DNA of 64,000 nucleotides from Eledone cirrhosa. Lineage: Eukaryota. The notes beneath the pieces were generated by a model that made no database searches, was not told the DNA's origin, and saw only the letters and a list, made by a program, of their open reading frames with translations. Positions 2,524 to 5,750 of this stretch are shown piece by piece. Made by a program: the position numbers and the translations under genes. The first letter of the stretch is position 1. Every line of letters begins with the position of its first letter. The stretch spans positions 55,614,001-55,678,000 of the forward strand of contig OZ024745.1 of assembly GCA_964016885.1 (NCBI GenBank), written 5' to 3'.

Positions 2524-2814
2524 ACATATATATATATAATATTAATAAATATTAATAAAAGTATGTGTTCTTACATGTAACAAATACATATAGGGATGCA
2601 AGTATTGTCCAACCGTATGCCAGTGTGTTTATATATATTTATATATATATATATATATATATATATATATATATATATATATATATATATATATATATAT
2701 ATATATATATATATATATATATATATATATATATATAAATATATAAAGGACGTAAAATAAGAAAATATTTTTTAAAAAAAATTTTAAAAAATTTTTTTAC
2801 TTACTTAAATTTTC

Positions 2815-2896
2815 ACTCCAACTAATTAGTTTCTGCAATGGGATAAAGACAGTTACGTAATCCAACTGTCGAGAATTCATTGCGTCATCAGGGAGT
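2815..2896 (-). ncRNA. Type I hammerhead motif, array copy 1
   Basis: Reverse complement: ACTCC-CTGATGA-CGCAATG...CATTGCA-GAAA-CTAATTAG-TT-GGAGT. Confidence 0.7.
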
Positions 2897-3371
2897 CTAT
2901 TCTCAGTTAAGTCTCCAGGCAATGCGCGGACACTGGCGGCTCATATAAAAATAATAATAATTCGGTAGATCGAACAGCTTGCGAGGACTGGATTCTATGT
3001 ACCGAAATTCTCACTGCTTCAAGTCAAATGGCCGATTCTAAAGAATCAATCACGTGACACAGAGGCTAGTTAGAAGGAATGGGATGGTAAGATGACTGAC
3101 GCCTACTAACACCCCAAAAAAAATTTTTTTAGAAGTGGTTTTGACAAGTTTGCTCGACAAATCAGTGATTTGGAGATAAATATAGATAATTTAATATATC
3201 AACTAACATAAGCGCACAGATGCACGCCCATGCCAGCACATACACAGGTTATGTCATAGTACCTAGGTGGTTCAATGCAGGAGAATGCAGAACAATAATA
3301 TAAAGGACGTAAAATAAGAAAATATTTTTTAAAAAAAATTTTAAAAAATTTTTTTACTTACTTAAATTTTC

Positions 3372-3453
3372 ACTCCAACTAATTAGTTTCTGCAATGGGA
3401 TAAAGACAGTTACGTAATCCAACTGTCGAGAATTCATTGCGTCATCAGGGAGT
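3372..3453 (-). ncRNA. Type I hammerhead motif, array copy 2
   Basis: Same motif as 2815-2896, 557 bp away. Confidence 0.7.
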
Positions 3454-4061
3454 CTATTCTCAGTTAAGTCTCCAGGCAATGCGCGGACACTGGCGGCTCA
3501 TATAAAAATAATAATAATTCGGTAGATCGAACAGCTTGCGAGGACTGGATTCTATGTACCGAAATTCTCACTGCTTCAAGTCAAATGGCCGATTCTAAAG
3601 AATCAATCACGTGACACAGAGGCTAGTTAGAAGGAATGGGATGGTAAGATGACTGACGCCTATTAACACCCCAAAAAAAATTTTTTTAGAAGTGGTTTTG
3701 ACAAGTTTGCTCGACAAATCAGTGATTTGGAGATAAATATAGATAATTTAATATATCAACTAACATAAGCGCACAGATGCACGCCCATGCCAGCAAATAC
3801 ACAGGTTATGTCATAGTACCTAGGTGGTTCAATGTAGGAGAATGCAGAACAATAATATAAAGGACGTAAAATAAGAAAATATTTTTTAAAAAAAATTTTA
3901 AAAAATTTTTTTACTTACTTAAATTTTCACTCCAACTAATTAGTTTCTGCAATGGGATAAAGACAGTTACGTAATCCAAGCTGTTCGATCTACCGAATTA
4001 TTATTATTTTTATATGAGCCGCCAGTGTCCGCGCATTGCCTGGAGACTTAACTGAGAATAG

Positions 4062-4143
4062 ACTCCCTGATGACGCAATGAATTCTCGACAGTTGGATTA
4101 CGTAACTGTCGTTATCCCATTGCAGAAACTAATTAGTTGGAGT
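4062..4143 (+). ncRNA. Type I hammerhead motif, inverted-arm copy
   Basis: ACTCC 4062-4066, CTGATGA 4067-4073, long stem II, GAAA 4125-4128, palindromic CTAATTAG 4129-4136, TT, GGAGT 4139-4143. Confidence 0.7.
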
Positions 4144-4618
4144 GAAAATTTAAGTAAGTAAAAAAATTTTTTAAAATTTTTTTTTAAAAATATTTTCTTA
4201 TTTTACGTCCTTTATATTATTGTTCTGCATTCTCCTGCATTGAACCACCTAGGTACTATGACATAACCTGTGTATTTGCTGGCACGGGCGTGCATCTGTG
4301 CGCTTATGTTAGTTGATATATTAAATTATCTATATTTATCTCCAAATCACTGATTTGTCGAGCAAACTTGTCAAAACCACTTCTAAAAAAATTTTTTTTG
4401 GGGTGTTAGTAGGCGTCAGTCATCTTACCATCCCATTCCTTCTAACTAGCCTCTGTGTCACGTGATTGATTCTTTAGAATCGGCCATTTGACTTGAAGCA
4501 GTGAGAATTTCGGTACATAGAATCCAGTCCTCGCAAGCTGTTCGATCTACCGAATTATTATTATTTTTATATGAGCCGCCAGTGTCCGCGCATTGCCTGG
4601 AGACTTAACTGAGAATAG

Positions 4619-4700
4619 ACTCCCTAATGACGCAATGAATTCTCGACAGTTGGATTACGTAACTGTCTTTATCCCATTGCAGAAACTAATTAGCTGGAGT
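4619..4700 (+). ncRNA. Hammerhead copy with mutated core (probably inactive)
   Basis: CTAATGA instead of CTGATGA, and GCT instead of GTT at the cleavage triplet. Confidence 0.6.
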
Positions 4701-5750
4701 GAAAATTTAAGTAAGTAAAACAATTTTTTAAAATTTTTTTTAAAAAATATTTTCTTATTTTACGTCCTTTATATTATTGTTCTGCATTCTCCTGCATTGA
4801 ACCACCTAGGTACTATGACATAACCTGTGTATTTGCTGGCATGGGCGTGCATCTGTGCGCTTATGTTAGTTGATATATTAAATTATCTATATATATAAAT
4901 ATATATATATATATATATATATATATATATATATATAAATATATATATATACATATATATATATATATATATATATATATATATATATATATATATATAT
5001 AAATATAAATATATATATATATATACATATATATAAATATATATATATATATATATATAAATATATATATATATATATATGGATTTGTGTGCGCGCGCGT
5101 GAGTGTGTATATATATATATATATATATATATATATATATATATATATATATATATATATATATTATACACACGCACGACTTACGTATAATGTCTTACGA
5201 TCAAAAGACGCGATAAACAATTATTAAATATAATTATTCAATTAACTTAGTAGCTAATATCAGAAAACATATTAATTATAATTATTCTGCTATAAAATGC
5301 TATCAAGAATTTTAAAAACATAATATCGCCATATAAGGATCGCATAACTATGTAATCCATTAAATGAAACAGAAAAAAGAAATAAAATTTAGGTATCGAT
5401 AAATAAAAATACATGTGCCCTGAAGAAAGAGTATATTCATAAAATGCAATATGTGTATATATGTTTAAATATTATTTATCTATTTAATTAATTATGTATT
5501 CCTGTTTATTTTTCTTACTTTCTCTTTCGCCCTCTGCCTCTCTTTGTGGTGGGATACATAATGAAGATGTGTGTTTGTGCATGTGTTTGTGTACGTGTGA
5601 GTCTATGTGTATGTATGTCGGCGCAGTTGGGTAGATATACGGAATCGGTGGACAATTCGTTGAATGAAATTATGGCAATTCCACCGTAATTGAAGAAAAA
5701 TATTTAAAGAGACCAGGGAAAATTTCGACAGAAAATCTTAAAATAAAAAT

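Follow-up and report, generated by a model that had tools for sequence, protein, structure and literature searches.

An inverted, two-armed retrozyme family in Eledone cirrhosa likely shows how a Penelope-type retrotransposon copies retrozyme RNAs

The window analysed here, a 64,000-nt stretch of Eledone cirrhosa DNA (assembly GCA_964016885.1, contig OZ024745.1, positions 55,614,001 to 55,678,000 of the forward strand), contains at 2741-4896 an insertion made of 3.87 units of a noncoding 557-bp repeat flanked by (TA)n. The element is a non-LTR retrozyme, an already known kind, and its insertion pattern likely shows how a Penelope-type retrotransposon copies retrozyme RNAs. An earlier note on this DNA had described about 3.9 near-identical units without an open reading frame (ORF) in (TA)n, and this description holds: units 1 and 2 differ at 3/557 sites, the longest stop-free frame measures 52 aa and the longest ATG frame 27 aa, and a reading-frame scan of the unit revealed no ORF for the reverse transcriptase (RT) and GIY-YIG of an autonomous Penelope-like element (PLE). 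The note had, however, taken the repeat for a single tandem array. It is actually built as two inverted arms, one on the minus strand (2741-3984) and one on the plus strand (3977-4896), which meet at their 5'-truncated ends and direct both ribozyme-sense 3' ends outward (Table 1). The GC content around the insertion is low (31-32% in 2-kb bins). The head-to-tail joint between units is carried by 11 raw DNA reads of an independent study (run X24) and also by contigs of X4 and X11, which bear two other organism labels. Four runs were compared with one near-complete unit; molecule ends from the restriction-site-associated DNA (RAD) run, which likely mark restriction sites, were left out. None of the 24 sequencing runs listed for the unit is an RNA run, which says nothing for or against expression.

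The ribozyme motif has the order ACTCC-CTGATGA-stem II-GAAA-CTAATTAG-TT-GGAGT, with a predicted cut after 4138. It had been attributed to every complete unit; motif and predicted cut are indeed present, but just three cores are intact (two minus, one plus) and the fourth is broken (G5A, U16.1C). The features of a type I hammerhead were all found, namely CUGANGA and GAAA cores, an NUH triplet and stems I-III, with stem I running on beyond an internal loop, and the GUU triplet reported earlier recurs in all subfamilies of the element. A hammerhead descriptor matched 2 of 3000 shuffled units. An Rfam search, run over window positions 1-10000 at E<=1, gave 55 matches, none of them a hammerhead, which the long stem II insert likely explains. 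The C-A mismatch reported to open stem II is better resolved into three features: an additional C between positions 9 and 10.1, a regular G10.1-C11.1 pair, and an atypical extra A before G12 (11.1/12). We compared 11 hand-picked natural sequences, all of which have the G10.1-C11.1 pair, the core, the C after A9, the A before G12, GUU, and the 10-nt palindrome of helix III. In this set 94% of cells are paired (100% in stem II, with three pair types at one position) versus 30-46% in slid controls, and seven pairs show double changes; 0/500 shuffles reach the score, a control that overstates significance because the sequences are related to one another. The core is conserved across genomic copies, its catalytic positions being identical in the common variants of three subfamilies with an overall identity of 70-80%, and it is this invariance, together with the covariation of stem II, that assigns the element to the non-LTR retrozymes. 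Hammerheads of PLEs with an extra base at 9/10.1, a G10.1-C11.1 pair and a palindromic helix III act as dimers (PMC4209133). For the lone motif, the best predicted fold (-24.8 kcal/mol) hides the core and the active fold lies at -21.4 kcal/mol; the helix III palindrome as a duplex is predicted at -9.0 kcal/mol. Activity as a dimer is plausible on these folding models.

A genome search with the unit, as the earlier note had proposed, returned at least 640 candidate places, and the 40 that were scored hold full units 94-100% identical to the query; mapped loci confirmed the tandem structure, with head-to-tail units and one hammerhead core each within every arm. Two further subfamilies were met beside other loci, one of 540 bp (~78-81% identical to the 557-bp unit) and one of 530 bp (~71%), so that the family has at least three. 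The three subfamily queries gave at least 640, 2261 and 2437 candidate places in overlapping sets. Three insertions lie in 715 kb chosen without regard to the unit, which suggests a copy number in the thousands, although this rate is probably too high because the sampled loci adjoin TA tracts. The young subfamily was mapped at 39 of the 40 scored loci plus the window locus, a sample biased to full units. Its copies diverge from the column majority at 0.28% of sites, with within-locus singletons at 0.05%, and the head-to-tail joint at the cut site is exact in 182/187 units. The young unit is also present under several other organism labels (runs X4, X5 and X6-X11; 24-67% of words), with pieces of X4 contigs identical to the window; the candidate explanations are close relatives, mixed samples and horizontal transfer.

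Past the cut, the arms have two alternative end positions, short and long, at +79/+201, +75/+198 and +61/+177 in the three subfamilies, and these positions lie at TA-like template stretches. Among 95 loci we found 70 inverted insertions, comprising 61 with one short and one long end, one short+short, one long+long, and seven with a non-standard end. One end of each kind thus occurs in 61 of the 63 classifiable inverted insertions (binomial p ~4e-16), or in 60/62 if L167 and L169, which look like one duplicated locus, are counted once; within the young subfamily the figure is 27/27. Insertions with a single arm may use one site or the other (11 long, 15 short, 2 other). Inner arm junctions differ between loci, many with 1-10 nt of overlap. 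The sole short+short case, L127:1169-2646, mixes two old-subfamily haplotypes (96% and 88% to the query), possibly through a template switch. In PLEs, two internal start sites of the RT mark the limits of the tail, and each strand is nicked and extended (PMC11167929); a Penelope tail is often found at only one end (PMC8557442). Such strict pairing of one end of each kind suggests that a single complex serves the two strands, and we hold twin internal priming by a Penelope protein to be quite probable.

Table 1. Positions of features in and around the insertion (numbered within the 64,000-nt window), and loci of two coding Penelope families
Feature	Position	Strand	Details
Left (TA)n tract	2630..2745	none	
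Left arm	2741..3984	-	ribozyme sense on minus: ~49 nt + 557 + 557 + 79 nt; outer end 2741 = short (S, +79)
Right arm	3977..4896	+	ribozyme sense on plus: ~160 nt + 557 + 201 nt; outer end ~4896 = long (L, +201)
Inversion junction	3977..3984	none	5'-truncated arm ends; 8-nt alignment overlap
Type I hammerhead, intact	2800..2912	-	predicted cut between 2820 and 2819
Type I hammerhead, intact	3357..3469	-	predicted cut between 3377 and 3376
Hammerhead, 3' part	3929..3984	-	truncated by inversion junction
Type I hammerhead, intact	4046..4158	+	predicted cut between 4138 and 4139; palindromic helix III
Hammerhead, broken	4603..4715	+	G5A at 4626, U16.1C at 4694
S-site bulged hairpin	4223..4244	+	5 nt 3' of +79 end position; further copies 4780-4801 (+), 3828-3849 (-), 3271-3292 (-)
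L-site bulged hairpin	4340..4362	+	just 3' of +201 end position; further copies 3710-3732 (-), 3153-3175 (-)
Tail, 122 nt	4218..4339	+	between both end positions; long predicted stem inside, present in all three subfamilies
Block with CACGTG	4457..4475	+	near-identical across three subfamilies; possible candidate internal promoter element, from sequence; further copies 3597-3615 (-), 3040-3058 (-)
Right (TA)n tract	4897..5168	none	
PLE-C	L245-L294		Hydra-type, open frames
PLE-B	L211-L240		Hydra-type, open frames

We sampled three Penelope families, PLE-A, PLE-B and PLE-C, from ~54,000-66,000 candidate matches, of which 71-126 were scored per search (65,958 genome-wide candidate matches belong to the PLE-A search). 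All three have, by inspection, the RW-, DKT and CxCX5C motifs of the Hydra clade. A PLE-A copy lies in the window itself (38911-42580, minus); it is a decayed Hydra-type Penelope with RT followed by GIY-YIG, frameshifted, and its terminal repeats contain a different type I hammerhead whose core is intact near 39007 and broken near 42477. An isolated match to the PLE-A short-site hairpin at 47121-47136 (minus) is probably another PLE-A end fragment. A Pfam search on PLE-A gave no informative match. PLE-B has coding frames of 713 aa with a median identity of 96%. PLE-C has 832-aa frames, and 26 other copies are 98.1-99.8% identical to L266; from its sequence it looks very recently active. On the sense strand, PLE-A has one CUGANGA core and the scanned copies of PLE-B and PLE-C have none; since the descriptor missed the PLE-A hammerhead in L101, the absence in PLE-B and PLE-C was judged by a simple search for the core.

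These coding families insert with ends resembling those of the unit. The fixed ends are 76 nt apart in PLE-B and 164 nt apart in PLE-C, and PLE-A is apparently also two-ended in the copies examined. PLE-C pairs its ends as the unit does in 16/16 two-armed loci among 20 (one clipped by the locus edge). About 5 nt after each end of the unit lies a bulged hairpin, consisting of a base of 3 bp, an upper stem and a 2-nt bulge on the 3' side. Each unit has exactly two of them in sense orientation and none in antisense (shuffle mean 0.04-0.07). Similar hairpins lie at fixed ends of all three coding families. When PLE-C came to light, the motif had already been defined; its two matches there lie 5-7 nt after the genomic ends, the second under a looser definition. 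The PLE-C short site is identical to the old-subfamily short site at 17/20 nt by reading, and owing to this match and its age PLE-C is the best candidate driver; we give even odds that it drives the young subfamily. The inverted arms, the two fixed ends and the hairpin common to coding Penelope families had all escaped the earlier note. A second hammerhead-bearing repeat group was seen at L095, L090, L215, L216 and L238; its spacing is 401 bp in L095, its two ends lie in TA or CA tracts, and its short site carries this bulged hairpin as well. It probably represents further retrozyme families; it was first assumed to be the pseudo-long terminal repeat (pLTR) of PLE-B, which later comparison ruled out.

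The variants within loci bear on the template. Outside homopolymer zones, position 36 and two older nested arrays, 40 variants occur in at least two units of a young locus; 35 of them are present in every covering unit and five are partial, and 17 of the 35 occur in both arms. Fifty singleton variants have not spread. Haplotypes nest in a tree-like manner, and arrays of up to 14 units carry one haplotype. Because most variants of a locus are common to all its units, each insertion represents one monomer haplotype, the same for both arms. The simplest source of such uniform arrays is a circle copied round, as has been proposed for tandem cDNA (PMC7229834), and we lean towards a cycle that includes a circular monomer; the source may instead be template jumping or a later amplification of the DNA. 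In-register sharing of variants between arms, a sign of a linear multimer, was found in one of four cases (L056), a small number judged by reading. In L065:4161-6072, three adjacent units with a 72-bp internal duplication are followed by a normal unit.

Arm starts were scored in an old-subfamily sample chosen by tail (26/30 loci, after two segmental copies and two matches in the query's own locus had been dropped). Of 43 starts, 21 lie at +2 to +21, two at +22 to +60, and three in the 40 nt before the cut. The peak fits either an RT that stops at stem I or one that runs off a cleaved 5' end, with annealing at a short palindrome thereafter. The young subfamily, with its bias to full units, shows no such peak (1/68). 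The old-subfamily count replaced a first test (old 14/55, third 6/41, young 1/68), which was set aside as biased by its queries. Individual arms start at the cut or within 3 nt of it at L121, L175, L143, L144 and L204.

In the old subfamily, a run of at least three CT follows the long end at 12/15 loci with internal CTCT and at 2/11 with internal CTAT (Fisher p 0.004; 15 of 41 rows without an internal allele were left out and one counted row is an internal copy), and 0/52 internal copies have more than two CT. Of 19 PLE-C short ends, five repeat a template stretch of 9 nt, by reading. Both patterns fit primer realignment at initiation; for the CT runs, later replication slippage beside the TA tract is a serious alternative. 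Target-site duplications were flagged at 3/107 sites, two of them credible (L067, L181) and one TA-rich noise. The idea that TA tracts are wholly new at insertion was not supported, and they often pre-exist. The paralogous empty site of L067 is without a TA tract, that of L064 has one. Many flanks are ends of other TA-targeting elements. At L101, L055, L141 and L142, insertions lie inside the TA tails of other Penelope or retrozyme ends; TA tracts are therefore hot spots of nesting.

Taken together, we propose that a Hydra-type Penelope protein copies the retrozyme in trans, priming both strands of the target on a single RNA, a reading to which we assign a probability of roughly 78%. Self-cleavage, circles and the driving protein are parts of it that we infer from sequence. 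Transcription of tandem units would bring neighbouring hammerheads together through the palindromic helix III, and they would cut after GUU, a lone monomer being predicted to fold with its core sequestered; the monomers would then be ligated into circles. The protein would bind the two bulged hairpins and nick both strands of a (TA)n target, and each 3' end would pair with a UAUAU-like stretch immediately 5' of one or the other hairpin (+79, +201). Each RT would copy a variable length, round the circle or along a linear RNA; the copied length observed per arm ranges from a fraction of a unit to about nine units. Short microhomology would finally join the two cDNAs into an inverted insertion with one short and one long end. 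The earlier note had taken the element for a young, non-autonomous retroelement with a hammerhead; this view, with a Penelope-like RT as the most likely agent of its copying in trans, gains support from the family, the haplotypes, the end pairing, the covariation and the PLE-C pairing.

Several points weigh against this proposal, besides the relatedness of the covariation set. Apart from the 17/20-nt match at the short site, we found no alignable sequence common to the unit and PLE-A, PLE-B or PLE-C, their pLTRs included, and without homology to the sampled pLTRs the assignment of a driver rests on a short structural motif. This motif was defined after the unit, PLE-A and PLE-B had been seen; the PLE-A long-site match, like the second in PLE-C, needed the looser definition, which was drawn up once the PLE-C sequence was known, and the search gave no match at the PLE-B short site or in the PLE-A copy L106. 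The hairpins are not individually stable (z -0.5 and -1.0), and the L hairpin lies outside the isolated minimum free energy fold. The initiation site of the Anolis PLE is not homologous to the cut DNA, and the strands showed no difference (PMC11167929). GUU and the extra A may give a weak ribozyme, and 8/9 Xenopus retrozymes did not cleave in vitro (bioRxiv 10.64898/2026.07.22.740005). Many old-subfamily arms end near the cut, so linear templates or RT stops also occur, and local amplification after insertion took place in L065 and L063.

The last two points also speak for twin priming without circles, in which linear, partly cleaved multimers would be the template and uniform arrays would arise by later DNA expansion or RT template jumping. 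Besides the starts at +2 to +21 (21/43), some of whose arms pass one site intact and stop at the next, hammerhead cleavage is dispensable in the Anolis PLE assay (PMC11167929). We nevertheless regard this version as rather unlikely, given that just one of five partial variants is confined to one arm, that the 50 unspread singletons are unlike gradual DNA expansion, that one-haplotype arrays reach 14 units, and that exact junctions in 182/187 units would be unlike template jumping. It is improbable, too, that the hammerhead fold is kept without cleavage, as a structural or protein-binding element or an RT stop. GUU, the extra A at 11.1/12 and the more stable inactive fold predicted for the monomer (-24.8 vs -21.4 kcal/mol) agree with such a role, as do the position of the +2 to +21 peak in the 3' strand of stem I, where RT could stall, and the lack of this peak in the young, full-unit-biased sample (1/68). 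On the other hand, no catalytic position differs between the common variants of the three subfamilies, whose overall identity is 70-80%; arms at the five loci listed above begin at the cut or no more than 3 nt from it; and a palindrome duplex of -9 kcal/mol suits cleavage as a dimer (PMC4209133).

That the unit is the pLTR of another coding Penelope family, its arrays being ORF-less fragments, is a prospect raised by the many Xenopus retrozymes that match pLTRs (10.64898/2026.07.22.740005) and by the small share of the ~54,000-66,000 candidate Penelope matches that was scored (71-126 per search). We consider it quite remote: the unit is not a terminal repeat of PLE-A, PLE-B or PLE-C, the three families sampled, none of which it matches; mapped young arrays consist of abutting units without an ORF-sized insert; both ends enter TA-rich sequence; and multi-unit tandems with exact junctions are the rule. 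A DNA-level repeat (satellite, miniature inverted-repeat transposable element or foldback) or an assembly artefact is largely refuted and very improbable. The outer ends do resemble inverted repeats, and long palindromes can misassemble, with read support here covering the head-to-tail joint only; but the ends differ by a fixed 122 nt, the junctions vary by locus, the covariation and both motifs are strand-specific, and the head-to-tail joint is found in independent reads and contigs. 

Proceeding from copying in trans by a Hydra-type Penelope, a more specific scenario is put forward tentatively, at somewhat less than an even chance: a circular hammerhead RNA would parasitise an active, hammerhead-less Hydra Penelope via two copies of the bulged hairpin, to be recognised by the protein; one ribonucleoprotein would prime both (TA)n strands at these two sites, and its RT would stutter there like telomerase, in keeping with the allele-dependent CT runs at the long end and the 9-nt repeats at PLE-C ends, and may lengthen target microsatellites.

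The unit shares with the metazoan non-LTR retrozymes of Cervera and de la Pena (2020, PMC7229834) a noncoding, low-GC, dispersed tandem organisation with one type I hammerhead per unit, and PLEs as mobiliser and tandem cDNA from a circle were proposed there as well. It differs in length (530-557 bp versus ~170-400 nt) and in the evidence, since cleavage and circles were shown in that study and insertion was hypothetical, whereas here the insertion pattern is seen and cleavage and circles are hypothetical; inverted two-arm insertions and fixed ends do not appear in its main text as searched. The length of 557 nt, once thought unusual, falls within the published range of 51-972 bp given by Li, Clavereau and Pollet (bioRxiv 10.64898/2026.07.22.740005), who likewise class the retrozymes of animals as non-autonomous PLEs. 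They rely on co-occurrence and on homology to pLTRs in Xenopus, and favour local tandem amplification; in our case no pLTR homology was found and the link consists of the insertion signature and the shared hairpin. Poseidon, the PLE of Anolis (Frangieh et al. 2024, PMC11167929), likewise has a tail defined by two internal RT starts, nicking and extension of both strands, an AT-rich target and a predicted dimer. It is, however, autonomous, its tail measures 30-40 bp compared with 116-165 nt in the units and PLE-C and 76 in PLE-B, its start site is not target-homologous whereas the ends here lie at TA-like template stretches, and strict one-each pairing is not reported in the accessible text. 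Hydra-clade PLEs (Craig et al. 2021, PMC8557442) show the same (TA)n targeting, tandem and inverted 5'-truncated copies and an often one-sided tail, but are coding, whereas the unit encodes nothing; hammerheads are described as universal in Hydra PLEs, in contrast to the scanned PLE-B and PLE-C copies and in agreement with PLE-A. A literature search, conducted mostly outside subscription journals and outside Repbase and some supplements, found no description of this family, the hairpin or the strict pairing of ends. On this search, three things appear to be new: a signature of twin priming that can be counted, a hairpin common to the unit and coding Hydra families, and a young candidate driver that lacks the hammerhead core.

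Elsewhere in the window, fragmented LINE-like (long interspersed nuclear element) frames occur on both strands at 26449-32012 and 48186-57500, with endonuclease and RT motifs recognised by eye. A CA/TA/TG microsatellite within a short inverted repeat at 1254-1447 gives sub-threshold Rfam matches to microRNA and small nucleolar RNA; it is likely a small foldback repeat and no RNA gene.

How retrozymes insert was left as an open question in the two retrozyme studies (PMC7229834; 10.64898/2026.07.22.740005), as was the origin of tandem and inverted Penelope copies with a one-sided tail in PMC8557442. The present family is a countable record of the insertion step. It also provides a matched pair for reconstitution from the same genome: a 557-nt RNA on which two start sites are mapped, and a Hydra protein family whose copies are near-identical and have open frames. 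Should the hairpin be enough for priming, it would define what a Penelope RT recognises, and if reiteration occurs at priming, it would tie the behaviour of Penelope RT to telomerase. The parasitic scenario, if true, would provide a signal in cis for mobilisation by Penelope in trans, and would directly account for the tail and the inverted arms.

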